Assembly (NCBI GenBank): GCA_042408785.1
Contig: JBHOQU010000039.1
Span: 22,606 to 86,605 of the forward strand
Origin: Dehalococcoidia bacterium
GTDB lineage: Bacteria; Chloroflexota; Dehalococcoidia; JAUQQI01
DNA: 64,000 nucleotides
Direction: 5' to 3'
Shown one piece after another: positions 16,821 to 32,400 of this stretch; position 1 is the stretch's first letter, and each line of letters opens with the position of its first letter. The notes under the pieces were generated by a model. It was given only the letters and a program-made list of their open reading frames with translations, ran no database searches and was not told the origin of the DNA. The position numbers and the translations under genes are program-made.

Positions 16821-17069
16821 TCAGGGGCTCCGGTCACCAATCAGACAAAAGCCTAGAAGCCCGACTTCCAGGAGGAAAACGCCCACCCCGAACCCGACGA
16901 CCCAGCCGGCATTTTCGGCCAGCACCTGGTAGCCGACCGCGCCCAGCACCGTGCAGAGCCCCAGGAAAAGATAGGCGATGAGCTCCCAGCGCCGCGACTT
17001 TCGGGCCGGCGGCCGCGGCGGGGCCGGCTCCGGCGCGGCGGGAGCTTTGACTTCAGGTAGTCGGGTCAT
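16821..17069 (-). CDS. small membrane protein (2 TM), hypothetical
   Basis: 82 aa. Pro/Ala-rich N-terminus, then two hydrophobic helices. ATGA overlap with the upstream IclR stop. Confidence 0.5.
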
Positions 17070-17896
17070 TGGGCCGTAATCCCGCCCGCCGGGGCCTCAA
17101 CGGCGCCGTCGGCCTTAAGGGCGGCCGACAGACCCGCGGCCGCCCGGCGCAGCGCCCCCAGCACCCCCTCGGCCTCCTGAAACCTGAGCCGCCGGGCCGG
17201 GGCGGCCACCCCCAGGGCCGCCGCGTGGCGGTCGCCCAGGGGCACCGGGACGGCCAGGGCCCGAACCCCGGGGCTGAACTCCTCGTCCTCGGCGGCAAAA
17301 CCCCGGACCCGAACCTCCTCCAGCTGACGGCGGAGGACGTCGGGGGTGGTAACCGTCCGGTCGGTGTAGGCCCGAAGGGTGGCCCGGCCGAGCCATACGG
17401 CCAGTCGGTTGGGCGGCCAGAATGCCAGCAGCGCCTTGCCCACGGCGGTGGCGTGGAGGGGCAAGAGCTGCCTGGGGCCCAAGGTTACCCGGAGCCAGTC
17501 TTCGGCCTCGGCCGCGGCCACCACGAAGGCCGAATCGTACTTAGCAACGGCGACGAAGGCCGTCTCGCCCACCTCGTCCCGCAGCCGGCGAACGGCCTCT
17601 TCGGCCTGGGGACCCAGTAGCCGGTCCGGGCCACAGTCCAGGGTAAGCCGGAGGAGGGCGGGCCCCACCGTGTAGCGGCCGGTGGCCGGGTCCTGGGCGA
17701 TGAAGCCGGCCCGGACCAGGCTGCGGCAGAGGCGGTGGGCGGTGCTGGGGGGCAGGCCCAGGGTGCGCGCGAGCTGGACGATACCGATAGGCTCCTGGGC
17801 CGAACTCAAAAGCTCCAGCAGGTCCACGGCCCGCAGGACAGAGCGGACCAGGCCGCCTTCCACGCTGGCGAATTGGTCGGTCCTTTTGGCGGACAT
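17066..17896 (-). CDS. IclR-family transcriptional regulator
   Basis: 276 aa. N-terminal winged-HTH pattern (VLRAVDLLELL...IGIVQLARTLGLPPSTAHRL) and a C-terminal IclR effector-domain pattern. Confidence 0.85.
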   Translation of the reverse strand: MSAKRTDQFASVEGGLVRSVLRAVDLLELLSSAQEPIGIVQLARTLGLPPSTAHRLCRSLVRAGFIAQDPATGRYTVGPALLRLTLDCGPDRLLGPQAEEAVRRLRDEVGETAFVAVAKYDSAFVVAAAEAEDWLRVTLGPRQLLPLHATAVGKALLAFWPPNRLAVWLGRATLRAYTDRTVTTPDVLRRQLEEVRVRGFAAEDEEFSPGVRALAVPVPLGDRHAAALGVAAPARRLRFQEAEGVLGALRRAAAGLSAALKADGAVEAPAGGITAQ

Positions 17897-18060
17897 CCTC
17901 CAATCCCTCCCGGGCGGGGTCTGCTTCTTCCCTTCGGAAGGGATTTTGGATGAGGAAGGCTTAAGGGGGTCTAAAAAATCGGGCGGTGGCCGTCAAAATT
18001 TTCTTAAGATTCCGTCAAACGGTACAGAGCCGGCCGGGGAGCCCTCCGCCGCCGGCCCTT

Positions 18061-18180
18061 CTATTTGCGGCCCCGGAGCCAGCGGAAGAGCTCCCAAGCG
18101 CCGACCCCCAGACCGCTGGCTAAAATGACGGCGGCGGTCAGCCACTCCCGGTTGCGCAGAAACCAGTCAACTAACGGCAC
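18061..18180 (-). CDS. possible 39-aa single-TM micro-protein
   Basis: Not in the ORF track (<60 aa). GTG preceded by GGGGGAAGG. Reads VPLVDWFLRNREWLTAAVILASGLGVGAWELFRWLRGRK*. Confidence 0.3.
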   Translation of the reverse strand: MPLVDWFLRNREWLTAAVILASGLGVGAWELFRWLRGRK

Positions 18181-18263
18181 CGGCCTTCCCCCTCAGACTT
18201 ACACGATTGTATACTTTCTTTACCCGGGCCGGCATTCACCGGTACCCTCGCCCGGAGTTGAAC

Positions 18264-19511
18264 GTGGCCCAAGCTTCACCAGGCCCCCTCGGCCGGCTTC
18301 TGGCCGGCCTCGGGAGGGCCTTCGAGGCGCTGAAGGTTCGCAACTACCGGCTGTTTTGGCTGGGCCAGCTCGTGTCCCAGATGGGCACCTGGGTCCAGCG
18401 GGTGGCCCAGGCGTGGCTGGTGCTGACCCTGACCGATTCACCCCTGGCCCTGGGCACGGTGACGGCCCTGCAGTTCCTGCCCATCCTCTGCTTCTCGCTG
18501 GTGGGCGGCATGCTGGCCGACCGGGTTCCCAAGCGCCGGCTCCTGCTGGTCACCCAGAGCCTGATGGCCTGCCAGGCCCTGCTTCTCGCCGCCCTCACCG
18601 CTTTCGGGGTCATCCGGCTGTGGCACATCTACGCCCTGGCCTTTTTCCTGGGCCTGGTCAACGCCCTGGATAACCCTGCCCGCCAGTCCTTCGTCCCCGA
18701 GCTGGTGGGTCGGGGCCAGGTCCCCAACGCGGTGGCCCTCAACTCAATGGTGTTCAACGTCTCCCGCATTCTGGGCCCCAGTATCGGGGGCTTCGGGGTG
18801 GCTGCGGTGGGGTTTGCCGGGTGCTTCTTCGCCAACGCCCTGAGCTTCCTGGCCACCATCGGGGCCCTGATACTTATGGACCCCAAACGGTTCTTCGTCG
18901 CCGGGAACGGCGGGCGCCGGCGGGCCGCCGGCCTGGGGCCGGCCCTCCGCTACGCCGTGACGACGCCGACGGTACTGACCGTGATTATCTTGCTCGCCTT
19001 GGTGGGGACCTTCGGCTACAACTTTACGGTGGTCCTGCCCCTGGTGGCCCGCTACGTGGTGGGGGTGGGGGCGGCCGGGTTCGGCCTGATGACCGGCGCC
19101 ATGGGGGTGGGGTCCGTTCTGGCGGCCCTCTGGCTCGCCTACCAGCGGCGGCCTACTTTGCGCCGGCTCCTGGCCGGGGCTGCGGCCTTCTCCCTGTTCC
19201 TGCTGATGGTGGCCTTTTCCCGGGTTTTTATCCTGACCCTGGGTCTGCTGGTCCTGCTGGGCTTTGCCAGCGTCTTCTTCACGGCCAACGCCCAGACCCT
19301 GCTGCAGCTGGCGGCCCCGGACGAGCTGCGGGGTCGGATTATGAGCCTGTACACCCTGCTTTTCCTGGGAACAACCCCCATCGGCAGCTCCTTTGTGGGG
19401 GCGGTGGCCGAGGGGTGGGGGGTGCAGGCCGCCGTGGCAATAGCCGCCGGCCTCTGCTGGGTCGGGGTTGCGGCCGCCTTTGCCTACGCCCGCCGCTGGC
19501 AGGCCGCCTAG
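18264..19511 (+). CDS. MFS transporter (EntS/DUF894-like subfamily)
   Basis: About 12 hydrophobic helices. NYRLFWLGQLVSQMGTW start region. GTG at 18264 with GGAG 6 nt upstream. The TTG at 18207 lies inside a TATACT -10-like element. Confidence 0.8.
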   Translation: MAQASPGPLGRLLAGLGRAFEALKVRNYRLFWLGQLVSQMGTWVQRVAQAWLVLTLTDSPLALGTVTALQFLPILCFSLVGGMLADRVPKRRLLLVTQSLMACQALLLAALTAFGVIRLWHIYALAFFLGLVNALDNPARQSFVPELVGRGQVPNAVALNSMVFNVSRILGPSIGGFGVAAVGFAGCFFANALSFLATIGALILMDPKRFFVAGNGGRRRAAGLGPALRYAVTTPTVLTVIILLALVGTFGYNFTVVLPLVARYVVGVGAAGFGLMTGAMGVGSVLAALWLAYQRRPTLRRLLAGAAAFSLFLLMVAFSRVFILTLGLLVLLGFASVFFTANAQTLLQLAAPDELRGRIMSLYTLLFLGTTPIGSSFVGAVAEGWGVQAAVAIAAGLCWVGVAAAFAYARRWQAA

Positions 19512-19553: not shown

Positions 19554-22500
19554 TTACCGAAAGCTGTGGGCGGCGCCGACCTCCCCCAGGGCGGCCAGGC
19601 CCGGCGGCTCGATAAGCCGAAGGTCCCACCCGCCCGGCCCGCTTTGCCCGGCCGCCGGCATGCCGGCGGCCGGCACCCGGAGCCGGCGGACCTCCTCGGC
19701 CAGGAGGGAAAGGCTGCCCCGACTCCGGTTGACCCGACCCGAAACCACCAGCAGGGGCGCCGTCCGGACGGTGTCCCGGTGCCGCTTGTAGAGGCCGGGC
19801 AGGATAACCACGTCGGCCTCGCCGAACTCATCGTGCAGGGTTATAAAGCAGATGCCCCGGGCATTTTCGGGCCGCTGGCGAGCAACCACCAGCCCGGCCA
19901 CCACCACCCGGGTCCCGTCGGGCAGGCCGCCGAGGGCCCCCAGCGGAATCACGCCCTCCCCCAGGGCCGGACGGAGCAGGGCCAGGGGGTGGTAGGCCGT
20001 CGAGAGGCCCATCACCCGGTAGTCGGCCAGCATCCGGTCCCAGCTGGACATCTCCGGGAGGCGGGGTAGGCGGCCCGGGTCCAGGGGAAGGGCCGGCTGC
20101 CAGGCCCTGCCGGCCCGGCGGCCCCCCAGAACCAGCCCCAGCTGCCAGAGGAGCTCCCGGCGGCCGAGGCCGAAGGAATCGCAGGCGCCGACCAGAATCA
20201 GGTTTTCCAGGGCCTGCCGGGGTAGGCTCACCCGGCGCGCCAGGTCACCCAGCCACCGGAAGGGGCCGTCCCGCCGGGCCTCCGCGATGGCCCGGGCCCC
20301 GGCCTCCCCGATCCCCTTAACGAAGGCCAGGCCCAGCCGCACCGCCCCGCCCTCGATGGTGCATTTGGTCTGACTCAGGTTAACATCCGGCGGCAGGACC
20401 ACCACCCCGTGACGCTGGGCATCTTTTATAAGCACATCCGGGGCGTAAAAGCCCAAGGGATAGTTATTAAGCAGGGCGCAGAGAAACTCGGCCGGGTAAT
20501 AAAGCTTCAGCCAGGCCGTCTGGTAGGCAAGCTGGGCGAAGGCCACGGCGTGGGACTGGGGGTAGCCGTAGGCCGAAAATCCCCGGATCTTGTCGAAGAC
20601 CCGGCGGGCCGTCGCCTCGGGGATCCCCTGGGCCAGGGCCCCCTGACGGAAGTCTTCCCAGAAGGCGGCAATCGCCGCCTCCGACCGGCGGCGGGAGAGG
20701 GCCCGGCGCAGGGCATCGGCCCTGGCCGGCGAGAATCCCCCGATGGCCATGGCCGCCTGGATGGCCTGGTCCTGGTAGACCATCACCCCGTAGGTGTGGG
20801 CCAGGTAAGGCTCCAGCTTCGGGTGGTCGTAGGTTACCGGCTCGAGGCCGTGCTTGCGGCGGGCGTAGATCCGGCCGCCCCCGCCGTTTCCCGGCCCCGG
20901 CCGGACCAGGGCGTCCTGGTCGGCCAGCTCCTTGAGGTTGCGGGGCCTGGTCTGGACCAGGAGCTGGCGCTGGGCCCGGCTCCCCATCTGGAAGGTTCCG
21001 ATGGTGTCGGCCCGGCCGAGCATGTCGTAGACGGCCGGGTCGTCGAAGGGGATTCGGCTCAGGTCGATGAGGGGGCCGCCGTTTTCGGCGATAAGGTCCA
21101 CCGCCTCCTCCACGGCGGAAAGCATCCCCAGGGAGAGAAAGTCGATTTTGGCAAAGCCGGCGTCCTCGCACGAGTCCTTATCCCACTGGCAGATAAACCG
21201 GCCGGGAATGGCCGCCGGGATGATGGGAACCATCTCGATGAGGGGTGTGGAAGAGATGACCATCCCCCCGATGTGCTGTCCGAGCTGCCGGGGAAAGCCG
21301 GCCAGGGCCTCCACCAGGTCGGCGAACCGGGCCCAGAGGGCCTCCCCGAGGCGAGCCCGGTATTCGGGCCGGCGCCGAAGCTCGGCCCGGATCGCCCGGG
21401 CCGAGCCGTCTTCGCACAGCCGGGCCAGCCGGTCCACCTCCCCGGCCGGCAGGCCGAGGGCCTTCCCCACCGCCCGCACTGCCCCCCGCAGCCGGAAGGT
21501 GGAAACGGCGGCCACCAGGGCGGCGTGCTCGGGGCCGTAATGCTGGTAGATGCGCAGGATAACCCGCTCCCGAATTTCCCGGGGCATGTCGATGTCGATG
21601 TCGGGCAGCGACTGCATCCCCTCGTTGAGAAAACGCCCCAGGAAGAGGTTGGCGGCGACGGGGTCCACCCGGGACAGGCCGATAAGGTAGCAGACCAGGG
21701 ACGAGACCGAGCTTCCCCGGCCGAGGACGGGGCTGACCGGGGCCGAACCCCGCACCTCCGCCGCCACCTCCCGGATGAGGCGGACGATGTCCCGGTAAAC
21801 CAGGAAAAAGCCGGCCAGGTTGTGGCCGGCAATAAGCCTGAGTTCCTCCTCGAGCCGCTCCCGGGCCCGCCGGTAAAGAACCGGGTCGGTAAAGCGGTTA
21901 TAAACCTCATCCAGCCGCCGGCGGCAGTACTCGGCCAGGATCACATCGGCCGGCCGGTCGCCTTCGGCCTGGAAGTCCGGCAGCCGGTAGCCCAGGTCCC
22001 GGGTCAGGTCGAAGCCGGCGAGCCGTTCGGCCAGCTCCCGGGCATTTCTGACCGCCTCCGGGTAATCGGCAAAGGCCGCCTCCAGCTCGGCCGGCGGCCG
22101 GAGATAAAACCGGTCGTTGGGGTAGCAAAGCTGCCCGGCCAGGTCGAGGGGCCGGTTGTGATGGATGGCGACCAGGGCGCCCTGAAGCAGGCCCCGGTCC
22201 GGGCGGTGGTAGTGAACGTCGCCCGTGGCGACCAGCCCGACCCCAAACTCCCCGGCTAGGGCCTCCAGGGCCCGGTTGCGGGCCCGGTCCCCCGGGGCCA
22301 GGTTGTTCTGGACCTCAAAGAAAAGGTTTTGGGAACCGAAAAGGTCCAGGTAGCGGCGGATGAGGTCCCGGGCCGCCGTCCTATCAGCCCCTTCGATAAG
22401 CCGGGCCAGGTCGCTCCGGCGGCCGCCGGTAAGACAGACCAGCCCCTCCGTCCGCCCGGAGAGCTCCGCCGGGTCCAGGGCCGGCCGACGCCGGTCGGCC

Positions 22501-22787
22501 CGGTGGGCCAGGCTGATGAGCCGGCAGAGGTTGGCATAGCCCCGCCGGCTTTCGGCCAGGAGCACCAGCCGGCCGCCGGTTCGGAGGGTGATTTCGGCCC
22601 CGGTAACCGGCCGGATCCCCCAGGCTTTGGCCGCCAGCGCAAACTCCAGAGCCCCGGCCAGGCTATCCCGGTCGGTAACGGCCAGGATTTTATAGCCCAG
22701 CTCGGCCGCCCGGGTAATATATTCTTCCGGCAGGGATGCCCCCTGCCCGAAGGAATAGGCCGTGTGAAGGTGAAGCTCGACGTCCAC
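19554..22787 (-). CDS. dnaE2: error-prone DNA polymerase III alpha-like subunit DnaE2 (ImuC)
   Basis: About 1077 aa. PHP-domain start VELHLHTAYSFGQGAS, Pol III alpha core, and an OB-fold C-terminus. GTG at 22785-22787 lies 4 nt after the upstream stop. The ORF-track extension to 22982 is out-of-frame overlap. Confidence 0.9.
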   Translation of the reverse strand: MDVELHLHTAYSFGQGASLPEEYITRAAELGYKILAVTDRDSLAGALEFALAAKAWGIRPVTGAEITLRTGGRLVLLAESRRGYANLCRLISLAHRADRRRPALDPAELSGRTEGLVCLTGGRRSDLARLIEGADRTAARDLIRRYLDLFGSQNLFFEVQNNLAPGDRARNRALEALAGEFGVGLVATGDVHYHRPDRGLLQGALVAIHHNRPLDLAGQLCYPNDRFYLRPPAELEAAFADYPEAVRNARELAERLAGFDLTRDLGYRLPDFQAEGDRPADVILAEYCRRRLDEVYNRFTDPVLYRRARERLEEELRLIAGHNLAGFFLVYRDIVRLIREVAAEVRGSAPVSPVLGRGSSVSSLVCYLIGLSRVDPVAANLFLGRFLNEGMQSLPDIDIDMPREIRERVILRIYQHYGPEHAALVAAVSTFRLRGAVRAVGKALGLPAGEVDRLARLCEDGSARAIRAELRRRPEYRARLGEALWARFADLVEALAGFPRQLGQHIGGMVISSTPLIEMVPIIPAAIPGRFICQWDKDSCEDAGFAKIDFLSLGMLSAVEEAVDLIAENGGPLIDLSRIPFDDPAVYDMLGRADTIGTFQMGSRAQRQLLVQTRPRNLKELADQDALVRPGPGNGGGGRIYARRKHGLEPVTYDHPKLEPYLAHTYGVMVYQDQAIQAAMAIGGFSPARADALRRALSRRRSEAAIAAFWEDFRQGALAQGIPEATARRVFDKIRGFSAYGYPQSHAVAFAQLAYQTAWLKLYYPAEFLCALLNNYPLGFYAPDVLIKDAQRHGVVVLPPDVNLSQTKCTIEGGAVRLGLAFVKGIGEAGARAIAEARRDGPFRWLGDLARRVSLPRQALENLILVGACDSFGLGRRELLWQLGLVLGGRRAGRAWQPALPLDPGRLPRLPEMSSWDRMLADYRVMGLSTAYHPLALLRPALGEGVIPLGALGGLPDGTRVVVAGLVVARQRPENARGICFITLHDEFGEADVVILPGLYKRHRDTVRTAPLLVVSGRVNRSRGSLSLLAEEVRRLRVPAAGMPAAGQSGPGGWDLRLIEPPGLAALGEVGAAHSFR

Positions 22788-22791
22788 CGCC

Positions 22792-23025
22792 CTACCCCCA
22801 CCCGCCCTGCTCGAACCAGCGGCCGGCCGACTCATCATAAAAGACCGTGAGCCGCCGGCCGTTAACCAGAAGCAGCCTGAAGTACGAACGCCGAACCGGG
22901 GCGTCTGTCCAGAGCCGGTCGGTGAGCTCCCAGCGGTCCAGGATGGCCGCAACCCCGACCAGGGGCCTGCCCCGGCGGGCAACGGCCGCCGGGAGGCCGT
23001 CCCGGGTGGTAACCCGGACCGGCAC
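22792..23025 (-). CDS. small protein resembling the C-terminal module of ImuB (DUF6504-like)
   Basis: VPVRVTTRDG...RWELTDRLWTDAPVRRSYFRLLLVNGRRLTVFYDESAGRWFEQG. GTG at 23023-23025 lies 8 nt after the imuB stop. An alternative TTG at 23091 overlaps imuB by 58 nt. Confidence 0.55.
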   Translation of the reverse strand: MPVRVTTRDGLPAAVARRGRPLVGVAAILDRWELTDRLWTDAPVRRSYFRLLLVNGRRLTVFYDESAGRWFEQGGWG

Positions 23026-23033
23026 CGGCCGGT

Positions 23034-24251
23034 TCAGAAAGCGAAGTCGACTTCCACCAGGGCAAAGCGGCGCTCGGGTAGCCTGCTCCAAGGGTCAACC
23101 TCCCGGATAAAGCCGAGGTTTGGGCGGCCGTAGCGGGCCTTTAGCTGTTCCGCCACCCCCTTAAGCCACTCCCACCGCCCCCCAAGGCCCGGCCAGAAGC
23201 GAACCTGCCGGGCCGGCTCCCCGGCGGCCGCCTCGAGTTTAAGCCCGATGCCGGCCACCGCCACCCCACCCGCCCCCCGGCGGTTGGGCCCGGCCAGGAG
23301 GGCTTCCAGGGCCCGGACCAGCCCCGGCTCGAGGGACTCGGCCCGGGCCGAAGGGGTTTTAAAAACCAGGCGGCGCTCCAGCACTGGCCCCCGGTCTGGC
23401 CGGAGCCGGAGCCAGGCCCGGACAACGGCCCGGCCCCGAAGCTCGGGCCGCCCCAGGGCCTGCCTGAGGAGCCGGCAAAGGACCAGCCTGACGGCATCGA
23501 AGGTTATCAGGGGTTCGAAAAAGTCGGCGGCCTCGGTAACGGCCGGCGGTCGGGGCCGGGGCTTAAGGGGCACGGCGTCGACGCCCCTGAGGAGGTCGAA
23601 AAGCCGGTCCCCTTCCCAGCCGAACTGGGCGATAAGGTCGGCCCGGCCGAAGGCCAGAAGCTCCCCGGCCCTTGTAATGCCGAGGAGCCCGAGCCGGCGC
23701 CGGGCCTCCGCCGATACCGGCAAGAGGTCCGCCGGCGTCCGGTCCAGCAGCCGGGCGATTTCGGCCGGGTCCACCGCCCGAAAGCCTCCGGGCCGGCAGG
23801 CGGCGGCCGCAAGCCGGGCGATGAATCGGCCGGGTCCGACCCCCACGGCGGCGGGGTAGTCACCGGCGGCCCGCCGAAGCCGCCGGGCCAGGCCCGCCAG
23901 CCCGCCGTAAAGGTTGACCAGGCCGTCGGCCGCCACGTAGGCACATCCCGGCTCCGCCGGCTCCACCACCGGGCTTACGGTTTCCAGGGCCTCCAGCAGA
24001 TTCGAAAACTCATCGTCGTAGTAAAGATGGTCGGCCGGAAGGACCGTCAGGCCCGGACAGACGGCCTGGGCCTCCCGCAGGCCCATCCCCACCCGCACCC
24101 CGCCGGCCCGGGCCTCGGGCGAGGCGTCGACCACAACCCGCCGCCCCGCCGGGTCGCCGACAAGGGCTACTGGCCGGCCGTTAAGGCCGGGGTTTCTGCA
24201 GGCCTCGCAGACCCAGCGAAAATTCCGGACCAGCACGCACCCCACCAGCAC
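23034..24251 (-). CDS. imuB: ImuB-like Y-family DNA polymerase homologue
   Basis: RPVALVGD...VVDASPEARAGGVRVGMGLREAQAVCPGL is a Y-family palm-like N-terminus. The position directly upstream of dnaE2 fits ImuB. GTG at 24249-24251 is preceded by AGGGGGTGG. Confidence 0.8.
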   Translation of the reverse strand: MLVGCVLVRNFRWVCEACRNPGLNGRPVALVGDPAGRRVVVDASPEARAGGVRVGMGLREAQAVCPGLTVLPADHLYYDDEFSNLLEALETVSPVVEPAEPGCAYVAADGLVNLYGGLAGLARRLRRAAGDYPAAVGVGPGRFIARLAAAACRPGGFRAVDPAEIARLLDRTPADLLPVSAEARRRLGLLGITRAGELLAFGRADLIAQFGWEGDRLFDLLRGVDAVPLKPRPRPPAVTEAADFFEPLITFDAVRLVLCRLLRQALGRPELRGRAVVRAWLRLRPDRGPVLERRLVFKTPSARAESLEPGLVRALEALLAGPNRRGAGGVAVAGIGLKLEAAAGEPARQVRFWPGLGGRWEWLKGVAEQLKARYGRPNLGFIREVDPWSRLPERRFALVEVDFAF

Positions 24252-24261
24252 GGTCCACCCC

Positions 24262-24516
24262 CTAAGTTCGGGACGCCAAACCGGCCCGCACCCCGGAGTA
24301 GAGGCCGCTGGCGGCCAGCCCGGCAATTATGCCCGTAAGGATCCCCTCCGGGGCCGGCCGGCCCAGGCTTAAGGCGACCCCCACGTTGAGGCCGACCCCG
24401 AAGCCCAGGGCCAGAAGCGGATACCAGCGGCTGTCCTTAACCCAGAGCTTGGCAACCTCCACCAGGCCGACGATGACCGGAACCCCGGCCAGGCCGATGA
24501 ATTCCCGAACGTCCAA
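24262..24516 (-). CDS. phage holin-like 3-TM protein (A118/Phage_holin_1-like architecture)
   Basis: 84 aa, TTG start with GGAAAGGGGG RBS. Three TM segments and a GIIAGLAASGLYSGV third helix, as in small Gram-positive phage holins. Confidence 0.6.
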   Translation of the reverse strand: MDVREFIGLAGVPVIVGLVEVAKLWVKDSRWYPLLALGFGVGLNVGVALSLGRPAPEGILTGIIAGLAASGLYSGVRAGLASRT

Positions 24517-24534
24517 GGCTTACACCCCCTTTCC

Positions 24535-24552
24535 GTGTTTCACGTGAAACAC
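24535..24552. promoter_or_regulatory. perfect 18-bp palindrome GTGTTTCACGTGAAACAC (candidate operator)
   Basis: Read directly. It sits between the stop of the 71-aa gene (24555) and the RBS of the holin-like gene. Confidence 0.4.
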
Positions 24553-24554
24553 CC

Positions 24555-24770
24555 CTAGGCCCAGACGGCCACCACAACTTCCTGCTCCCCGCCCAGGGGT
24601 CCCGGACCCGCCACCAGCACCCGCCGGCCGGGGACCATCTCGGCGGCCGGAATCCCCCGGCTGGCGGCGACCACCACCGCCCCGGTCGGGCTCCCCACCG
24701 GGCGGACGGTGGCCCGGTACGTGGCGCCGTCGAAGCCGGTTAAGATTCCCCACCAGACCTCGAAGTTCAC
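24555..24770 (-). CDS. small beta-rich phage-like protein, hypothetical
   Basis: 71 aa. The GTG overlaps the stop of the upstream 650-aa gene (GTGA). Reads VNFEVWWGILTGFDGATYRATVRPVG.... The remainder of track ORF 24555-25316 is a shadow frame. Confidence 0.5.
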   Translation of the reverse strand: MNFEVWWGILTGFDGATYRATVRPVGSPTGAVVVAASRGIPAAEMVPGRRVLVAGPGPLGGEQEVVVAVWA

Positions 24771-26719
24771 CCCACACCCCCCAGCAGAAGCTCCTGCTCG
24801 TAGCGGCCGGAGCCGTACTTTACCCGCAGGCCAAGGACCCTTCCCCGCCGCCCCGACACCCCGGCCGCCGGGTCGTTCACCTCCACCACGTCCCCGACTT
24901 CCAGCCCGGGGTGCGGCCGGATCACCACCCGGTCCTGCCGGGCCGACCTTGTCCCCCGGCCGGCCAGGGCTTCGGCCAGGTCGGCCAGGGCCGCCGGGGA
25001 GCGGCCGGGCTCGTAGTCCGACCCCAGCCGGAAAAAGACCCCGCCGGCCGACCCCGCCCCGGCCAGACGCTGGGCCGCCGCCGTTTCCGAGACGGCCCGG
25101 GCCCAGTCCGGGTCGGCCGAAAGGTCGGCGTATTCGCCGGCCAGCAGGGGCCAGTCCTCCGGCCCGACCCCCAGAACGGCCGGGTCCGCGGCCTCCCAGG
25201 CTACGGCCAGAACCCCGGGGCCGTCCGGCCGAAGGACCTCCCGCAGCCCCCCGGCCAGGGCCCGCCAGGCCGGGTAGAGGGACTGGCCGGGCAGGACCCG
25301 CAGGCCGGGATACCACCGGGTCGACGAATCGGAGCCGGCGGCCTGGCCGATTTCAAACCCGGCCAGGCCGCCGATGGCGTCCAGAATCTGCCGGGCCGAG
25401 GCGGTCCCGGCCGGATACTGGAGGGAAAACATCAGCCGGGTGGCTTTAAGCAGGACGGCGTAACCCTCGGCCGCCAGGGTCAAGGTCCCGGGGCCCGGCC
25501 GGACGGCCGTAAGCCAGTAGGTGGGGGGCGCGGCGGTGACCTTCTCGGCCCCCGCCGCCGTCACATAGCCCGGGTAGACCTGGAGCTGACCGCCCGGCCG
25601 CAGGCCCGAGTAGGCCCCGTGGTCGTTCCGGAGGGTGGCCGTCAGCCGGCCCCCTTCCGGGTCCTGGGTATAATCGAGGCTTAAGATGTCGGCGAAGGGC
25701 ACCGTCAGGAAGGCCGCCTGCGGGGCCGACCAGACCCCGCCGGCCGTGCAGGCCCAGACCCGCCCCCCGGACAGGCCGGCGATGGCCGCCCCGTAACTGC
25801 CCGGGGCGGCCCCGGCCCGGTCCTGGGGAAGCAAAGGCGATGGGGCCCGCCAGCGGCCGGCCGTAAAGCCTGCGGGCGGGTAGACGTCGCGCTGAAGGAG
25901 GGTCGAAGCCCCGCCGAAGCCGAGCACATAGGTGAGCCTGAGGGTATCTGCCAGGGCCAGCCTGGGGTATTTAAACTCCAGGGCCGCGTCCGGGTCGGCC
26001 TGCTCCAGGGGGTAAAGGCCGCCCCAGGCCCCGCCCCCGTTAAGGTCGAAGGTGGTCCAGCTCAGAATCGGCCGGTTAGCAGGGTCTTTCCCGGCCACAA
26101 CAACCAAATAGCGGTCGAAGGCCCAGACCGCCGTCAGGTGGGCGATTTGCCCGAATGCCGTCGGGTGGCTTACGGCGGGCTGCCAGCCCAGGGCCCGGCC
26201 CCACTTCCGGGCCCGGAGGGTATTGCCCCCGGCGGCCCGGTAGAAAACGGCAAAGTTGTCGGGGTCCTTATAGGCGGCCGCCAGGGGTGGGGCGCCGTCG
26301 TGGGCCGGAACGGCCGCCCCGGCCGGCCAGCTGAGGCCGTAGTCGGGGCTCTCCCGGTAGGTGAGGGTTCCGGACCCGTCGTCGGAAAGCCAGAGCACGT
26401 AAGGGCCGGGGGAGGCGGCCAGGGCCTCGGCAGTCCCGGCCGGTCCCAGGTCCTGCCAGCCGCCGAAGGCGGCCGCCGGGGTCGGGTTGGGAACCCGGGC
26501 GTACTGCCGGGCCGAGCCGGGTTCCCCGTAGCGCAGCCGGAGCAGGCTCCCGTCGGCCGCCACGGCCGCCTGGATGTTCCGGTCGGCCGGGTCGGCGTAG
26601 TGGCGCTCGTAGCGGTGGTTGTCGACGTTGCCCCAGCGGTCGGCGTAGGCCAGCTCCACGTAGGGGGTGGCGGCCGGGGCCTTTGCGGCGGCCAGGAGGG
26701 TTGGGCTTACCGACCGCAT
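24767..26719 (-). CDS. phage tail / host-recognition-like protein with BNR (Asp-box) repeats
   Basis: 650 aa from the ATG at 26717-26719, 2 nt after the SLT stop. Asp-box SPDYGLSW and a weaker LSDDGSGT. The C-terminal part ends like tail hub/baseplate proteins (VVIRPHPGLEVGDVVEV...YEQELLLGG). Confidence 0.55.
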   Translation of the reverse strand: MRSVSPTLLAAAKAPAATPYVELAYADRWGNVDNHRYERHYADPADRNIQAAVAADGSLLRLRYGEPGSARQYARVPNPTPAAAFGGWQDLGPAGTAEALAASPGPYVLWLSDDGSGTLTYRESPDYGLSWPAGAAVPAHDGAPPLAAAYKDPDNFAVFYRAAGGNTLRARKWGRALGWQPAVSHPTAFGQIAHLTAVWAFDRYLVVVAGKDPANRPILSWTTFDLNGGGAWGGLYPLEQADPDAALEFKYPRLALADTLRLTYVLGFGGASTLLQRDVYPPAGFTAGRWRAPSPLLPQDRAGAAPGSYGAAIAGLSGGRVWACTAGGVWSAPQAAFLTVPFADILSLDYTQDPEGGRLTATLRNDHGAYSGLRPGGQLQVYPGYVTAAGAEKVTAAPPTYWLTAVRPGPGTLTLAAEGYAVLLKATRLMFSLQYPAGTASARQILDAIGGLAGFEIGQAAGSDSSTRWYPGLRVLPGQSLYPAWRALAGGLREVLRPDGPGVLAVAWEAADPAVLGVGPEDWPLLAGEYADLSADPDWARAVSETAAAQRLAGAGSAGGVFFRLGSDYEPGRSPAALADLAEALAGRGTRSARQDRVVIRPHPGLEVGDVVEVNDPAAGVSGRRGRVLGLRVKYGSGRYEQELLLGGVG

Positions 26720-26721
26720 CT

Positions 26722-27126
26722 TCAGCCGCCGTAGAGGATGAGCCGCAGGTACCTGCGGGTCTCCTCGGGCAGGATGAGCCACCAGCGGTCGCCGTAGCGG
26801 CGGATGCCCCGGTCCACCCGACCCCGCCCGCTGTTGTAGGCGGCCAGGGCCTTGGCATAATCGCCCCCGAAGTGGTCCAGATACTCCCGCATCAGCCGGG
26901 CTGCGTACCGGAGGGAGGCCTCCGGGTCGTACGGGTCCACGTCCGGGTGAAATTCCGGCACGATCTGGGCGATGCCCACCGCTCCGGCCGGGGAGATGGC
27001 GTTCGGGTCAAAACCCGATTCCAGGTCAATCTGCCGGACGAAGAGGGCCGGGTCGACCCCCTCGTTCTGGGCCGCCGCCCAGGCGTAGTCGTGGTAGTAA
27101 GAGTAGTCCTTCGGCCGCTCAGGCAT
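26722..27126 (-). CDS. lytic transglycosylase (SLT domain)
   Basis: 134 aa with the catalytic-Glu context QIDLESGFDPNA, plus GIAQIVP and AYNSG motifs. Confidence 0.85.
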   Translation of the reverse strand: MPERPKDYSYYHDYAWAAAQNEGVDPALFVRQIDLESGFDPNAISPAGAVGIAQIVPEFHPDVDPYDPEASLRYAARLMREYLDHFGGDYAKALAAYNSGRGRVDRGIRRYGDRWWLILPEETRRYLRLILYGG

Positions 27127-27742
27127 CGCTTTTGCCTCCGTTAGAGGTTGGGATGTGAAGGCGCGAAGACCTTACCCGACCGGTGCGCCCCCGCCTGGCC
27201 AGCTCGGACCGAAACCTGGCCAGGGTTGCCTCGGCCCACTTTAAGAAGTCGGCCTGGGCGCTGCGGGTAAGGTTCACCCGGTTGATGGCGTGGTTGGCCA
27301 GGGCCCGGACGGCGTACCCGGCCGCCCCGAGGAGCAGAAGCTCCTCCTGGTCGGGGCTTAACGTCGAGCCGGTGTCGGTCAGGGTGTGCCGGCCGAGCCA
27401 GCAAACCCGGACCTGCGCCCCGGCCGCCGGGGGCGAATCCACCAGCAGGGTGAGGGTGCTGGCCCGGCGGGCCCAGCCGACGTAAGCCGGCGGAAACAGC
27501 CCGGCCGGGTACTCCACCGCCTCAACGACCAGAAGCCCGGCCAGGCCCGAAAGGTCGACCTCCCGGGTGCCGCCCGGCATGATGAGGTCGGTCTGCTGCT
27601 CCCGGGGCATCCCCACGCTCAGGTCGGAGAGGGCCCGGTCCAGGTGGCGGTCAAGCTCGGCATCGGACCAGCGCTGGGCGGCCGGGTCCTCGTCCTTAAG
27701 CTCCCGCCGCAGCCGGGCCCGCAGTTCGGTTCGGGTGCTCAT
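27119..27742 (-). CDS. phage head-tail adaptor/connector-like protein, hypothetical
   Basis: 207 aa. The N-terminal LRARLRRELKDED...RWSDAELDRHLDRAL pattern is common in phage adaptor proteins. Position is downstream of the capsid gene. Confidence 0.4.
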   Translation of the reverse strand: MSTRTELRARLRRELKDEDPAAQRWSDAELDRHLDRALSDLSVGMPREQQTDLIMPGGTREVDLSGLAGLLVVEAVEYPAGLFPPAYVGWARRASTLTLLVDSPPAAGAQVRVCWLGRHTLTDTGSTLSPDQEELLLLGAAGYAVRALANHAINRVNLTRSAQADFLKWAEATLARFRSELARRGRTGRVRSSRLHIPTSNGGKSDA

Positions 27743-27757
27743 CGCCGGCTCCGAATA

Positions 27758-27982
27758 CTACTCCGGTCCGGGCAGGGATAGGCCCAGGTCGATGAGCCGG
27801 TGCCGCCGGTCGACCTGCTGAAACTCCCGGAAGAGGCTTTCGGCCGGGCCGGCCTCGCACCAGGCCCGGTAGCGGATGGCCCCGGCCTCGGGGGAGGTTT
27901 TTAAAACCTCGATGAGCCGGCGGTAGACCCGCTCGAGGACCTCCGGCCGGTGGGCGTGGACGATGATAACGCCTTTAAACAT
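27758..27982 (-). CDS. hypothetical small phage-associated protein
   Basis: 74 aa, 13 nt after the capsid gene stop. No motif recognised. Confidence 0.4.
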   Translation of the reverse strand: MFKGVIIVHAHRPEVLERVYRRLIEVLKTSPEAGAIRYRAWCEAGPAESLFREFQQVDRRHRLIDLGLSLPGPE

Positions 27983-27995
27983 CGGACCCTTCCCC

Positions 27996-28883
27996 CTACG
28001 GCCGGACGCCGTACAGCCTGGCGACCTTCAGGGTGGAGAAGAGGGCCAGGCCGCAGTACCACTTGACCCGGTTCCGGGTGGCATCCCGGGCCTCCAGGGA
28101 GCCGACCCGCTCCACCTGAATCCAGCCGTTGGTCAGGCCCACCAGGCCGTCCTCGCCGAAGGCGACGGCGTAAATCGACGAGCAGTCGGTCGAGGTGCCC
28201 ACCGTCTCGTTGTCGGGCACGAAGTCCGAAACGGCAATGGGGATGCCGTTGTAAAGCTCGACCCAGCGGCCGAACTCGTTAACGACCCCCTCGATCTGGG
28301 AGCTGGCCGCCCGACGCAGTTCGTTGAGCTTCCGGCGCGACCGTCGGGACATGATGATAAGGTCGGGCTTCCCGGGCCGGATAAGGTCCAGCATCTCGTC
28401 AAGCTTGGCCAGGGTGAGGGTTGCGCCGTTGGTGCCCATCGTGACGGCCTGAGACCCGGTGCCGATGATGGTGCGCAGGCCGTCAAAGGCGTTCGGGTCG
28501 ACGGTTGAGTCGCCGGTGATGGCGGTCTCCTCAAACTTGTGGGCGACGGCCTTGACCTTAAGCTCCAGAACGACCGCCTCGATATCCTGGATGTTGGAGC
28601 GGGTCTGCCGCAGGTAGTTGTCCACGTCGGCGTCGCCGCCCAGAATCTTAAGGGAGGTGGTCACCTGGGTGAAGGTTGGGGTATCCTCGGCCCAGGCGGC
28701 GCCGACGGCGTAGAAGGCGGCCGTTCCGGGGCCGGCCTCCCGGTTGTAGGTTAAGGCGTTGCCCGAGACCTCGATAAAGGGCATCCGCTCGAGCAGGGGC
28801 GAGGCCTTCACCACCGTCTCGAAGACGCCCTTAACCAGCAGGTCGTTGGAGAGCTTGGCAGCTTCGGCAAGGGTAAGGGCCAT
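27996..28883 (-). CDS. phage major capsid protein (HK97-fold type)
   Basis: 295 aa. The N-terminal LSNDLLVKGVFETVVKASPLLERMPFIEVSGNALTYNRE pattern and the FDGL...LDEMLD...PDLIIMS layout are typical of small tailed-phage capsid proteins. Preceded by a coiled-coil scaffold gene. Confidence 0.7.
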   Translation of the reverse strand: MALTLAEAAKLSNDLLVKGVFETVVKASPLLERMPFIEVSGNALTYNREAGPGTAAFYAVGAAWAEDTPTFTQVTTSLKILGGDADVDNYLRQTRSNIQDIEAVVLELKVKAVAHKFEETAITGDSTVDPNAFDGLRTIIGTGSQAVTMGTNGATLTLAKLDEMLDLIRPGKPDLIIMSRRSRRKLNELRRAASSQIEGVVNEFGRWVELYNGIPIAVSDFVPDNETVGTSTDCSSIYAVAFGEDGLVGLTNGWIQVERVGSLEARDATRNRVKWYCGLALFSTLKVARLYGVRP

Positions 28884-28897
28884 TTATATCCTCCTTC

Positions 28898-29257
28898 TCA
28901 GAGTTGGCGGCCTTGAAGGCCGAGCCGGATCTTTTCGACGGCCGGCAGCGCGTCGAGGTCGGGCTGGACCCGGCCCGGCGGGACCGGCGGAACCTGCCGG
29001 ACGGCCTCCCGGCGGGCCTCTTCGGCCGCCTGCTTTCGGACCCGCTCCACCAGGGTTCGGGCCTGCTCAAAGGCCCGGTCCAGGTCCTCGACCGAGTCGC
29101 CGCTTATGAGCTCGGCGGCCTCCGGAAGCAGACCCTGCAGGCGAACCCGGTAGGCCTCGACGGCCGCCCGGTACTGCCGGTCCAGGGCCTCGAGCCGGGC
29201 GGCCAGTTCGGCGTCCGGCCCGGTGGCTTCGGGTATCGGCTTTTGGCCTTCGTTCAC
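28898..29257 (-). CDS. phage scaffolding-like coiled-coil protein
   Basis: 119 aa from the GTG at 29255-29257 (AAAGGAGGTG RBS 8 nt upstream). Alanine/glutamate/arginine-rich helical sequence directly upstream of the capsid gene. Confidence 0.55.
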   Translation of the reverse strand: MNEGQKPIPEATGPDAELAARLEALDRQYRAAVEAYRVRLQGLLPEAAELISGDSVEDLDRAFEQARTLVERVRKQAAEEARREAVRQVPPVPPGRVQPDLDALPAVEKIRLGLQGRQL

Positions 29258-29316
29258 CGGTAAAGCACCTCCTTTAGTGGTCTCACCCGATAGTGTTCGC
29301 CCCAACCCTTAAAAAC

Positions 29317-29330
29317 TGCACAAATGTTCT
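29317..29330 (-). promoter_or_regulatory. near-consensus LexA (Cheo-type GAAC-N4-GTTC) box, AGAACATTTGTGCA
   Basis: One mismatch in the second half-site (GTGC vs GTTC). It lies in the 17-nt spacer between TTTACT (29331-29336) and TTTAAG (29308-29313) on the minus strand, about 60 nt upstream of the scaffold gene. Confidence 0.35.
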
Positions 29331-29408
29331 AGTAAAATCTGGCGAGGGCTCCGGTCCCGGGCCGAAGGCCAATGCCAGGGTGCTTATTTAAAAATATGGT
29401 TTCGGTTC

Positions 29409-29437
29409 TTGACAAAACACGGGGCACTAATTATAAT
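29409..29437 (+). promoter_or_regulatory. consensus sigma-70 promoter of the formate dehydrogenase operon
   Basis: TTGACA (29409-29414), 17-nt spacer, TATAAT (29432-29437). Confidence 0.65.
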
Positions 29438-29494
29438 AAGCCAGCATCAGGTGGCAGACTCAGCGAAAATCATATTCTCTCACGGGGGGGTTCC

Positions 29495-32400
29495 ATGGCG
29501 GTTACAATTTCCAGGCGGAATTTCCTCAAGCTGGGGGTGGCCGGGGCGGCGGCAACGGCCTTCGGCTTCGACCTTAAGCCCGTTGTCGCCCGCACCCGCG
29601 GCCTTAAGATCGACCGGACCACCGAGACCCGCAGCATCTGCCCCTACTGTTCCGTAAGCTGTGGGGTTATCATTCACACCCTCGGGGACCGGGCCGGCAA
29701 CGTAACGGGCACCACCGTGGTCCACGTCGAGGGCGACCCCGACAGCCCCATCAACCGGGGGACCCTCTGCCCCAAGGGGGCAACCTTAAAGCACAACATC
29801 GTAAACGAGCTCAGGCTTACCAAGGTCCTTTACCGGGCCCCGGGTAGCGACCGCTGGGAGGAAAAGTCCTGGGACTGGGCCATCGACCGGATCGCCCGGC
29901 TGATTAAAGAGACCCGGGACGCCAAGCTCATCGAGCGGGACCATCGGGGCCGGGTCGTCAACGCCCTTACGGCCATTGCCGTTATCGGCGGCTGCACCGA
30001 CTCCAACGAGAACAACTACCTTATCCAGAAGGCCTTCCGGGCAGGCTTAAGCATCATCCCCGTCGAACAGCAGGCCCGGATATGACACGGCCCCACGGTG
30101 GCCAGTTTGGCCGCCACGTTCGGTCGGGGCGCCATGACCAACGGCTGGACCGACATCGCCAATGCCGACGTCATCCTGGCGATGGGCGGAAACCCGGCCG
30201 AGAACCACCCCTGCGGCTTCAAGTTCGTGATGGAGGCCAAGCGGAAGCGGAACGCCAAGCTGGTGGCGGTGGACATCCGCTTCCAGCGCACGGCGGCCGT
30301 TGCCGACCACTTCGTTCAGATCCGGGCCGGAACGGACATCGCCTTCCTGGGCGGCCTCATCAACTACGCCCTCACCAACAACCGCTACCACGAGGAGTAC
30401 CTCCGGCTCCACACTAACGCCCCCTTCATCGTCCGGGAAGACTTCAAGTTTGACGAGGAGAACGGCGTTTTCTCCGGCTGGGACGAGGCCAGGGGCCAGT
30501 ACGACCCCACCAGCTGGGACTACGAGTACGACGAGAACGGCTACGCCAGGGTCGACCTGACGATGCAGCACCCGCGGTCGGTCTTCCAGCTCCTTAAGAA
30601 GTTCTACTCCCGCTACACCCCGGAGCGGGTGGCCCAGATCTGCGGCTGCAGCGTCGACGACTTCCTCAAGGCGGCCGATATCATCACCTCCACCTACGCT
30701 CCCGACAGGGCCGGAACCATCATGTACGCCCTGGGCTGGACCCACCACAGCTTCTCGGTCCAGCTTATCAAGGCGGCGGCCACCCTCCAGCTCATCCTCG
30801 GCAACGTGGGGCGGCCGGGCGGGGGCGTAAACGCCCTGCGGGGCCACGCCAACATCCAGGGCGGGACCGACATGGGCATGGGCTACCACAACACCCCGGG
30901 CTACATCCCCATCCCCAAGGCCCCCCACCAGAGCCTCCAGCAGTTCCTGGAGGCCGTGACCCCCAAGGCCCTGCGGCCCAACTCCGTCAACTACTGGCAG
31001 AACATGCCCAAGTTCGTCGTAAGCCAGCTTAAGGCCTTCTACGGCGACGCCGCCACCAAGGAGAACGAGTTCGCCTACCACCTCCACCCCAAACTCCCCG
31101 AGGACCCGGCCACCGGCCGCCTGGAGAACTGGAGCTGGGCCTTCATCTTCGACCACATGGCCCAGGGCCGGGTGGACGGCCTCATCAGCTTCGGGATGAA
31201 CCCGGTTAACAACGGCCCCCACACCCGCAAGGTCATCTACGCCCTCTCCCAGCTCAAGTGGCTGGTGGTGGCCGAGAACTTCATGACCGAAACCGCCTAC
31301 TTCTGGCGGCCCGACATCCTGGCCACCATCGGCAAGAAGCCTGAGGATGTCAAGACCGAGGTCTTCGTTCTGCCGGCGGCCAACTTCGCCGAAAAGTCCG
31401 GCTCCTTCACCAACTCGGCCCGCTGGGCCCAGTGGAAGTGGAAGGCCATCGACCCGCCGGGCGAGGCCAAGGCCGACCAGGAGATCGTGGGCCGCATCTT
31501 TATGAAGGTCCGGGAGCTCTACCAGAAAGAGGGGGGCCGCTTCCCCGACCCCGTCCTCAAGCTGGACTGGCCCTACACTAACCCCTACGCGCCCTCCGAA
31601 GAGGAGATTGCCCGGGAGATCAACGGCAAAGACCTCACCACCGGCAAACAGCTCCCCCTCTTCACCGCCCTTCGGGACGACGGCACCACCTCCTGCGGCA
31701 ACTGGCTCTACTGCGGCTCCTGGACCGAAGAGGGCAACCTGATGGCCCGGCGGAACCTGGACGACCCCACCGGCCTGGGCTTCTTCCACAACTGGGCCTT
31801 CAACTGGCCGGCCAACCGCCGGATCCTGTACAACCGGGCCTCGGCCGACGCCCAGGGCCGGCCCTGGGACCCCTCCCGGCCCGGGATCGTCTGGGACGGC
31901 AAGCGCTGGGTCGGGGATGTGCCCGACTACCCGGCCACGGCCCCGCCGGAGCAGGGCTGGGGCGCCTTCATCATGATTCCCGAGGGCGTTGCCCGCCTCT
32001 TCGCCCCGAAGGGCGCATTTGTGGACGGCCCCTTCGCCGAGTTCTACGAGCCCCTGGAGTCGCCGGTGCCCAACCTGCTGCACCCGAAGCGGAGCCAGAA
32101 CCCGGTGGCGGTCGTCTTTAAGACCACCGAGTGGGACCGGCTGGGCCGGGCCGAGGAGTTCCCCATTGTGGCCACCACTTACCGCCTCACCGAGATGTTC
32201 CACTACTGGACCAAGAACAACCCGTACCTGGTCCAGCTCCAGCCGGAGTTCTTTATCGAGATGCCTTCGGAGCTGGCGGCCGAAAAGGGCATCAAAAACG
32301 GCGACATGGTGCGGGTCATCTCGGCCCGGGGCGAGGTTAAGGGCCGGGCCCTTATCACCAACCGGATCCGGCCCATGCGGGTGGGTGACCGGACGGTTTA

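Follow-up and report, generated by a model that had tools for sequence, protein, structure and literature searches.

Why should a row of phage head, tail, and lysis genes run without interruption into a cassette for error-prone DNA synthesis, and do the two parts act as one unit? These questions are raised by a contig of a Dehalococcoidia bacterium (assembly GCA_042408785.1, contig JBHOQU010000039.1, forward-strand positions 22,606–86,605), from which we analyzed a stretch of 64,000 nt, referred to below as the window. The reading that we favor, at a probability of roughly 0.6, is that two units of a DNA-damage type were joined into one conserved string of 11 genes lying behind a single LexA-type box. 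It is built on the observed anatomy of the string, its conservation, the selection on its genes, its clade specificity, and motif statistics. What is new is the combination; a domesticated phage module and an SOS mutasome cassette are each of a known kind. An earlier note on this DNA had remarked that the architecture has no described precedent, and we likewise found no description of imuB, dnaE2, and a capsid gene together in the literature searched.

Inspection of the open reading frames (ORFs) showed eleven minus-strand genes at positions 19554–29257, packed in the same direction with a largest gap of 38 nt, as the earlier note had described. From scaffold to dnaE2 they encode a scaffold-like protein, a major capsid protein (MCP), the small protein p74, a head-tail adaptor-like protein, an SLT lytic transglycosylase, the large protein p650, the small protein p71, a holin, an ImuB-like protein, the small protein p99, and a DnaE2-type polymerase (Table), with successive spacings of 14, 13, 15, −8, 2, −4, 38, 10, −58, and 4 nt. 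The imuB start lies 10 nt beyond the holin stop, the distance given in that note, and is preceded by GGGGGTGG; the p99 start overlaps the 3′ end of imuB by 58 nt. The GTG start of the scaffold gene is supported by an identical Logan contig (2 kb), on which a gene of 119 aa is called. A mechanically called 85-aa ORF (24520–24777) was discarded as a wrong frame because its ratio of nonsynonymous to synonymous substitution (dN/dS) was 1.4, unlike the overlapping 71-aa ORF (0.26), which is a real gene, as had been supposed. The window has a GC content of about 68%, and the GC content at third codon positions in the phage genes (0.86–0.89) was like that of host genes; together with the intact frames, this agrees with the host-like composition noted before. 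No RNA family in Rfam was found within the operon, and neither an integrase nor a repressor was seen in the scanned flanking genes, the remaining window lying outside the profile scan.

The same 11 genes, in the same order and with the same sizes, were found in at least six sampled lineages (L002/L180/L181, L015, L009, L010–13/L016, and L017), here called the clade. ImuB was 72–93% identical among them (82% for L002/L180/L181, 77% for L009, 72% for L010–13/L016, and 73% for L017). The closest relative in the genome collection, L002, is a contig of a metagenome-assembled genome of Dehalococcoidia that is collinear with window positions 31507–22138 at 90.5% nucleotide identity. An operon for formate dehydrogenase (FDH) lies upstream of the string in every contig reaching that far, and in five contigs the string is followed by tmk-like, SpoIIIAA-like, and phosphonate ABC transporter genes; this common site across lineages indicates that the string has been vertically inherited. 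The holin-imuB junction, whose alignment across relatives the earlier note had proposed, was kept at 10–13 nt in all lineages, with only a Shine-Dalgarno sequence in it and no terminator-like site nearby.

Selection was estimated from eight lineage pairs at a synonymous divergence (dS) of 0.2–0.7 (Table). The capsid was the most conserved protein of the string, and in most lineages the phage genes were free of frameshifts over about 5.4 kb. Judged by these ratios, the phage genes are under purifying selection and are at least as constrained as the repair genes. The low dN/dS values and the intact frames exclude neutral decay since the lineages split.

Table. Features of the gene string and its surroundings in the window, with selection estimates for the encoded proteins, and example LexA-type boxes in other loci of the capsid family (numbered within each locus).
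Feature	Position	Strand	Amino-acid identity	dN/dS	Basis or remark
LexA-type (Cheo-like) candidate box, AGAACATTTGTGCA	29317–29330	−			59 nt 5′ of the scaffold start codon
Second invariant upstream block, CGAAYACTATCGGGTGAGA	29281–29299	−			Kept in window, L002, L015, and L016; neighboring bases vary
Scaffold-like protein, 119 aa	28898–29257	−		0.42–0.46	GTG start at 29257 after AAGGAGG
MCP, HK97-fold, 295 aa, epsilon15 gp7/SU10 type	27996–28883	−	94–98%	0.03–0.07 at dS 0.36–0.60	Profiles and AlphaFold2 model
p74, clade-specific small protein	27758–27982	−	85–96% in all clade lineages	0.15–0.56	Conserved in all clade lineages
Head-tail adaptor-like protein, 207 aa	27119–27742	−		0.21–0.36	PF24175
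SLT lytic transglycosylase, 134 aa	26722–27126	−	90–98%	0.06–0.14	PF01464
p650, tail hub or nozzle-like, N-terminal BNR/Asp-box propeller	24767–26719	−		0.21–0.33	Family profile
p71, small protein after p650, 71 aa	24555–24770	−		0.21–0.37	Family gene order, dN/dS
14-bp palindrome, GTTTCACGTGAAAC	24537–24550				In the 38-nt gap separating p71 from holin, the widest of the string
Holin, 84 aa, three hydrophobic segments	24262–24516	−		0.13–0.21	phrog_1299
ImuB-like inactive Y-family polymerase, 405 aa	23034–24251	−		0.26–0.40	PF00817
p99, small ImuB partner, 99 aa	22792–23091	−			Position after imuB in relatives
DnaE2-type error-prone C-family DNA polymerase, 1077 aa	19554–22787	−	87–93%	0.12–0.16	NF004225, domains
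Box in locus L081	9340–9353				Example from loci L019–L097
Box in locus L085	6155–6168				Example from loci L019–L097
Boxes in locus L063	1791–1804, 9341–9354				Examples from loci L019–L097
Boxes in locus L061	1659, 5333, 6963				Examples from loci L019–L097

Homology and gene order identify the phage part as the head-tail unit belonging to a family of elements found widely across Chloroflexota. The capsid family gave more than 6,000 matches, hundreds of them at 56–68% identity and nearly all 295 aa long. We surveyed 158 family loci outside the clade, 78 metagenomic and 80 from IMG/VR. In the fuller relatives, genes for a small membrane protein, a TerS-like protein, the large terminase, and the portal come first; after variable genes these are followed by scaffold and capsid, and after further variable genes by adaptor, p650, a p71 homologue of 70–81 aa, and fibre or lysis genes. 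Many loci carried the scaffold-to-p71 block without terminase or portal within 5–10 kb. By this comparison, the window module is the complete head-tail unit of the family; it lacks the terminase-portal unit, and two clade-specific genes, p74 and SLT, have been added to it. Two loci, L008 (4794–16599) and L063 (1891–15808, adjoining ruvB), are 12–14 kb clusters between host genes that contain terminase, portal, scaffold, capsid, adaptor, p650, and p71, with or without an amidase and a holin. Among their ORFs with matches, none was an integrase, repressor, or replication gene, several small ORFs having no match, and both look like gene transfer agents (GTAs). Solitary intact 295-aa capsid genes also occurred among host genes (L029 at 10001–10885 of a 2.27-Mb contig, L045, L067, and L083), next to genes for beta-lactamase-fold, P450, sulfate permease, iron-sulfur, and alcohol dehydrogenase proteins. 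Those of L067 and L083 have their own LexA-type box, and the L067 gene is followed by a scaffold-like gene. Stop codons were absent from all 82 capsid genes surveyed. A sister group from IMG/VR (L100–L179), with a 305-aa capsid at 54–60% identity and a portal gene adjacent in 52 of its 80 loci, appears more phage-like than this host-embedded branch.

The association with the polymerase cassette was confined to the clade. Neither imuB nor dnaE2 was found in any of the 158 non-clade loci, which speaks against the earlier suggestion that the mutasome is prophage cargo; the SLT gene was equally missing from all 158, being a clade-specific insertion between adaptor and p650. Among relatives, ImuB identity falls from 72% directly to 37%, and the next relatives (L014, L098, and L099; 33–37% identical) have imuB-p99(-dnaE2) and no phage genes. 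Cultured phages contained no ImuB-like gene closer than generic Pol IV/V homologues. Their closest capsid match was 44% identical, the phages concerned being mostly siphoviruses, and p650 and the adaptor had no tblastn match in 50,697 phage records.

Profile matches bore out the capsid, SLT, and holin assignments of the earlier note. The MCP matched phrog_212 (E-value 9e−76) and, above the cut-off, the NCBIfam epsilon15-gp7-like MCP model NF045672 (E-value 1.5e−59), and its AlphaFold2 model, of moderate quality (pLDDT 60), resembled HK97-fold shells. SLT matched PF01464 (E-value 1.6e−20); the holin matched phrog_1299 (E-value 1.9e−16) and was 57% identical over 75 residues to the final gene of the L008 cluster. 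The adaptor stood at the cut-off of PF24175 (SU10_adaptor; E-value 6e−6, 27.2 bits against 27), and its homologues, 37–48% identical, follow the MCP in most family loci. For the scaffold, the earlier assignment kept its support from position, directly before the MCP in nearly every family locus, and from tblastn matches to the C-terminal part of a 349-aa protein of L008 and to the 130–171-aa scaffold genes of other loci; it found none in Pfam or PHROG. The Asp-box seen in the 650-aa protein was recovered by a profile of 53 relatives, which matched BNR/Asp-box sialidase propellers at positions of about 75–190 (E-value 1.5e−5) and, in the C-terminal half (343–456), gave a weak match to a contractile-injection-system protein. 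There were 280 representative clusters of full-length p650 relatives, and p650 follows the adaptor in every family locus examined; an AlphaFold2 model from six sequences was unusable (pLDDT 30). Homologues of p71 (70–81 aa) directly follow p650 in L025, L061, L063, and L081, and its domain forms the N-terminus of a 495-aa protein in L008; p71 is likely a tail tip or plug. We rejected the idea that scaffold and p71 are shortened versions of the 349-aa and 495-aa L008 proteins, since 130–171 aa and 70–81 aa are the family norm; as most family members have the short forms, the long L008 proteins are fusions. No match to p74 was found in Pfam, PHROGs, the PDB, or other family loci, and single-sequence PDB searches with p650, adaptor, MCP, p99, p74, and p71 gave nothing meaningful. 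A podovirus-like module, as proposed earlier, is suggested by the gene order and by the lack of tube and tape-measure genes, the two features to which this likeness is limited.

The second part of the string was previously called an imuB-dnaE2 mutasome. An inactive ImuB and a DnaE2-type polymerase are indeed predicted, of a type that departs from the canonical one. ImuB has an IMS domain (PF00817, E-value 1e−21) without the catalytic Asp/Asp/Glu: with DinB from Williamsia, taken from the ImuB scan of the genome collection, as the active-site reference, D8, D10 (the adjacent conserved Asp), D103, and E104 are replaced by Leu, Arg, Gly, and Cys. The best NCBIfam model for DnaE2 was NF004225, “error-prone DNA polymerase,” at 932 bits, 7 below the cut-off of 939, and PHP, pol3 alpha, finger, HHH, and OB domains were present. 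ImuB, at 405 aa, has no fused ImuB-C, and in all relatives a separate 99-aa ORF comes next; p99 homologues follow imuB in three independent cassette lineages, including the phage-free L014 and L098. The earlier view of this ORF as DUF6504-like is weakly supported and did not extend to the p99 family as a whole, the match being below threshold (17.3 against 24.2 bits) and found in 1 of 7 family members, and literature searches on DUF6504 gave nothing. On that sub-threshold match and a resemblance in motifs, it is possible that p99 is a stand-alone ImuB-C. No imuA or RecA-like ORF was present in the string, nor was there a RecA-like match in the window or family loci, and the place immediately upstream of imuB is occupied by the holin gene. 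By its gene content, the cassette is of a split type without imuA, not the canonical imuA-imuB-dnaE2 type. A split class of “iPolY + ImuB-C + DnaE2 (+RecA)” was described in 2026 (PMC12926913), and its iPolY and DnaE2 features are present here, so that the window cassette fits the DnaE2-iPolY-ImuB-C-RecA class in these two proteins, with p99 as a putative ImuB-C.

Both units appear to be connected with LexA. In 672 kb of family loci, perfect AGAAC-N4-GTTCT sites numbered 19, against 0.25 expected and 0–1 in shuffled sequences; the IMG/VR sister group, which served as an internal control, had 3 in 541 kb. Most of the perfect sites and most of the 32 sites with one mismatch lie directly upstream of a scaffold gene, a solitary capsid gene, a terminase block, or a portal gene. 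The family promoter arrangement is TTGACA-N4/5-[AGAAC-N4-GTTCT]-AyTAT, the box filling the promoter spacer. As far as motifs can tell, the units of the host-embedded branch thus appear to be repressed directly by LexA. The LexA of Dehalococcoides reportedly uses a GAAC-N4-GTTC operator; literature searches for a Dehalococcoides LexA box gave nothing. In Bacillus and clostridia, LexA has the same sequence as its operator (PMC4234289).

In the window, a box of this kind occupies the same position as the perfect boxes upstream of scaffold and MCP genes in other family members and is the sole such site in the operon. It forms the 14-mer of a conserved block, TAGAAC(A/G)TTTGTGCAGTTT, of the FDH/scaffold intergenic region, and it is kept in all clade lineages, bar one spacer base in one, amid diverged intergenic sequence. 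The window site, GAAC-ATTT-GTGC, has one core mismatch to GAAC-N4-GTTC. The same GTGC variant occurs 41 nt upstream of the phage-free imuB of L014, within TTCACG-17-TATGAT. Taken together, the L014 variant, the excess of boxes, and their fixed placement in promoters make a chance occurrence unlikely. The second block upstream of the scaffold gene, CGAAYACTATCGGGTGAGA, contains what may be a −10-like element, (C/T)ACTAT. We also considered whether the box had been inherited from the imuB cassette and dropped this idea, since the family survey showed it to be native to the head-tail unit.

The joined string could then work as follows. The first unit would be the head-tail-lysis unit, comprising scaffold, HK97 capsid, p74, adaptor, SLT, p650, p71, and holin; in host-embedded members of its family, the separate units (small genes with terminase; portal; scaffold, capsid, and tail) each have a boxed sigma-70-type promoter in front of them. 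The second would be the imuA-less mutasome of an inactive Y-family ImuB, p99, and DnaE2, which in one phage-free relative has a similar box to itself. In the clade, the lone LexA-like box upstream of the scaffold gene would govern the whole string as one LexA-repressed operon, and DNA damage would induce the error-prone polymerase along with the capsid, tail, and lysis proteins. The phage part may still build a particle or shell and lyse a fraction of the cells, in a GTA-like or PBSX-like manner. Terminase and portal would be supplied by a separate LexA-boxed unit elsewhere in the genome, which is conceivable because this family has them as LexA-boxed units of their own. Among the explanations offered in the earlier note, a domesticated module co-induced with error-prone replication is the one favored by the conservation in at least six lineages, the purifying selection, and the LexA-type box.

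Several observations weigh against this reading. The clade box departs from the 14-mer consensus at two positions, including one within the GTTC core, and the TTGACA and AyTAT hexamers of the family are not recognizable around it, so that regulation may have changed and the promoter cannot be placed. No comparable box was found upstream of imuB in L098 and L099, and the motif is thus not universal for such cassettes; no lexA or recA gene on which to check the motif was found in the window or the family-locus DNA. As the earlier note had stated, portal and terminase are missing: tblastn with the L008 proteins found no relatives in the 64 kb, and in their absence there is no known site on which the adaptor and tail proteins could assemble, and DNA packaging is impossible. 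Some copies are damaged. In L017, the capsid gene (485–1372) starts with ATA in place of ATG and has lost 9 nt, and about 100 aa are deleted in frame from p650 (2643–4286). In L015 (11718–12514), imuB is broken after about 75 codons, behind intact phage genes; AT-rich DNA comes next, with promoter-like sequences and the beginning of an ORF resembling a DNA methylase gene, so that the break marks an inserted sequence or else a junction made in assembly. The capsid gene of L180 (5372–6258) is identical to that of L002 except for a 1-nt deletion, probably an assembly error because the essential FdhA gene is also split on that contig. These lesions possibly reflect erosion in some lineages. It also looks paradoxical that a holin should be expressed constitutively together with a survival function, and co-transcription, LexA binding, particle formation, and lysis are all predictions from sequence.

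The most serious alternative, though an improbable one, is that two separately controlled units abut: scaffold to p71 would be expressed from the upstream box, and holin, imuB, p99, and dnaE2 would be controlled through a factor that binds GTTTCACGTGAAAC, a palindrome that could mark such separate control and to that extent also counts against a single operon. It was identical in every clade lineage amid varying flanks, lies in the largest gap, and did not recur in the window or in any of the 97 family loci searched; structural proteins and polymerases are, moreover, needed in very different amounts. However, no −35- or −10-like hexamers lie between it and the holin start, and as a candidate hairpin it has no U tract and is not unusually stable, making it convincing neither as a terminator nor as a promoter. 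Even under this arrangement, the holin would still be co-expressed with imuB over the 10-nt junction, and the palindrome could equally attenuate a single transcript.

We consider it a good deal less likely that the portal-less shell is an encapsulin-like nanocompartment induced by damage, with capsid and scaffold selected and no DNA packaged. Such a shell would suit the absence of portal and terminase from the window, the capsid being by far the most constrained protein, and the solitary intact capsids of the family that other Chloroflexota encode amid host genes, in some cases behind a LexA box of their own. The best Foldseek matches of the MCP model were likewise family 2 encapsulin shells (E-value 1e−5, TM-score 0.44–0.47, from a mediocre model of pLDDT 60). 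In sequence searches, however, the MCP matched only phage MCP families (Pfam, PHROG, and NCBIfam) and no encapsulin family, and the same capsid family occurs in terminase-portal modules. Adaptor, p650, and p71 are also intact and under selection, and the string has no enzyme cargo gene beside the MCP. The likeness to encapsulins is, as modeled, at the level of the fold only.

Interference with other phages, in which the structural proteins would poison the assembly of related phages while holin and SLT brought about abortive lysis, seems very improbable. An incomplete yet selected gene set, a family abundant in the same phylum that includes the more phage-like IMG/VR sister group, and a holin and lysin suited to abortive infection would all accord with it, but a capsid conserved at 95–98% is unlike what an arms race predicts, and the linkage to the mutasome would be left unexplained. 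Least probable of all is a truncated prophage with the mutasome as cargo or, as the earlier note also offered and the selection data contradict, decaying by coincidence beside the cassette: portal, terminase, and the endolysin amidase are missing relative to L008 and L017 and L015 carry a few lineage-specific lesions, but the string occupies one site in at least six lineages at dS up to 0.6 with intact frames and dN/dS of 0.03–0.36, its composition is host-like, no integrase was seen in the scanned flanking genes, an imuB/dnaE2-type cassette occurs in 0 of the 158 other family loci and in no phage-collection record, relatives with the phage genes absent or pseudogenized at this site were not found, and the sequences do not display the relaxed selection, pseudogenes, and patchy presence expected of a decaying prophage.

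On its upstream side, the string is flanked by the divergent selenocysteine FDH operon. The FDH alpha subunit (29372–32548, plus strand) is a selenoprotein with an in-frame TGA at 30083–30085 and a SECIS_3 element at 30080–30138 (RF01989; 64.8 bits, exceeding the gathering score). The FDH region also contains a perfect TTGACA-17-TATAAT promoter at 29409–29437, and the true start of the subunit is likely the Tat-signal Met near 29492. On the other side are a convergent gene for a major facilitator superfamily (MFS) protein and then IclR, TatA, and trp genes. These genes follow dnaE2 (17066–19511) only in the lineage of the window; in other lineages (L009, 9731–15810; L180, 15408–21047), the tmk-like gene, the SpoIIIAA-like ATPase gene, and the phosphonate ABC transporter genes are found there instead. 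No close match to the latter was found in the window, the ABC ATPase alone giving weak matches of 30–35% at 41898–43225. The 3′ border of the window string is, by this comparison, a lineage-specific rearrangement. Elsewhere in the window, a large ORF of 1438 aa with host-like codon bias lies at 1283–5599 on the minus strand.

Both error-prone polymerase cassettes and domesticated phage particles are seen as means by which genomes change under stress, and to our knowledge the two have always been described as separate loci. If our favored reading is correct, this string would be the first hard-wired link of mutagenesis with phage-derived particle production or lysis. It would also be a rare case of phage structural genes repressed directly by host LexA and the first candidate GTA-like system in the Chloroflexota, a largely uncultured phylum that is important in subsurface and dehalogenating communities. 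It further provides a test case of how a capsid gene can remain very strongly selected with neither a portal nor a terminase gene beside it. A LexA-controlled GTA-like family in Chloroflexota is plausible and is not established by the present evidence. The fuller proposal, in which a GTA-like system of dispersed SOS-boxed units stands directly under LexA and the head-tail-lysis unit of the clade was fused to the polymerase cassette, thereby coupling lesion bypass, particles, and lysis, is tentative and, on balance, doubtful.

Compared with known phage modules, the string shares with the late modules of epsilon15 and SU10 the capsid (NF045672, PF17236), the adaptor (PF24175), and the order scaffold, capsid, adaptor, and large tail protein; it differs in that its best capsid match among cultured phages is only 44% identical, the phages concerned being mostly siphoviruses, and that p650 and the adaptor are unmatched in phage records. 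With family 2 encapsulins it shares an HK97-fold shell of about 300 aa without a portal and the best structural matches of the capsid model, whereas by profile its capsid belongs to phage families, has adaptor and tail genes next to it, and lacks a cargo enzyme. The cassette resembles ImuA-ImuB-DnaE2 systems and the split class (PMC12926913; PMC6511836) in its inactive Y-family protein, small protein, and DnaE2-type polymerase, which are encoded by overlapping, co-oriented genes, and in the LexA-type box upstream of one phage-free relative. Unlike those mutasomes, it has no imuA, its ImuB C-terminal domain may be a separate 99-aa protein, and it has no operator of its own, beginning 10 nt after a phage holin gene.

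Damage-induced phage-derived systems provide a further comparison. The PBSX genes of Bacillus subtilis and the R/F pyocin genes of Pseudomonas no longer yield infectious phage, and in GIL01 the host LexA itself is the repressor. As in these systems, DNA damage would switch on structural and lysis genes here, to judge from the genes; they, in contrast, keep their own regulators (Xre, PrtR/PrtN, and gp7) and a full set of assembly genes, and none of them, as far as we know, shares an operon with an error-prone polymerase. We know of no particles or DNA transfer for any Chloroflexota element. The likeness to GTAs of the RcGTA type lies in a structural cluster without replication, integration, or regulatory genes, host-like composition, attached lysis genes, vertical inheritance under purifying selection, and likely control by a host regulator, LexA also being needed for RcGTA production. 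The window cluster differs from these GTAs in that it has no terminase or portal, carries a LexA-type box directly, and is fused to DNA-repair genes.

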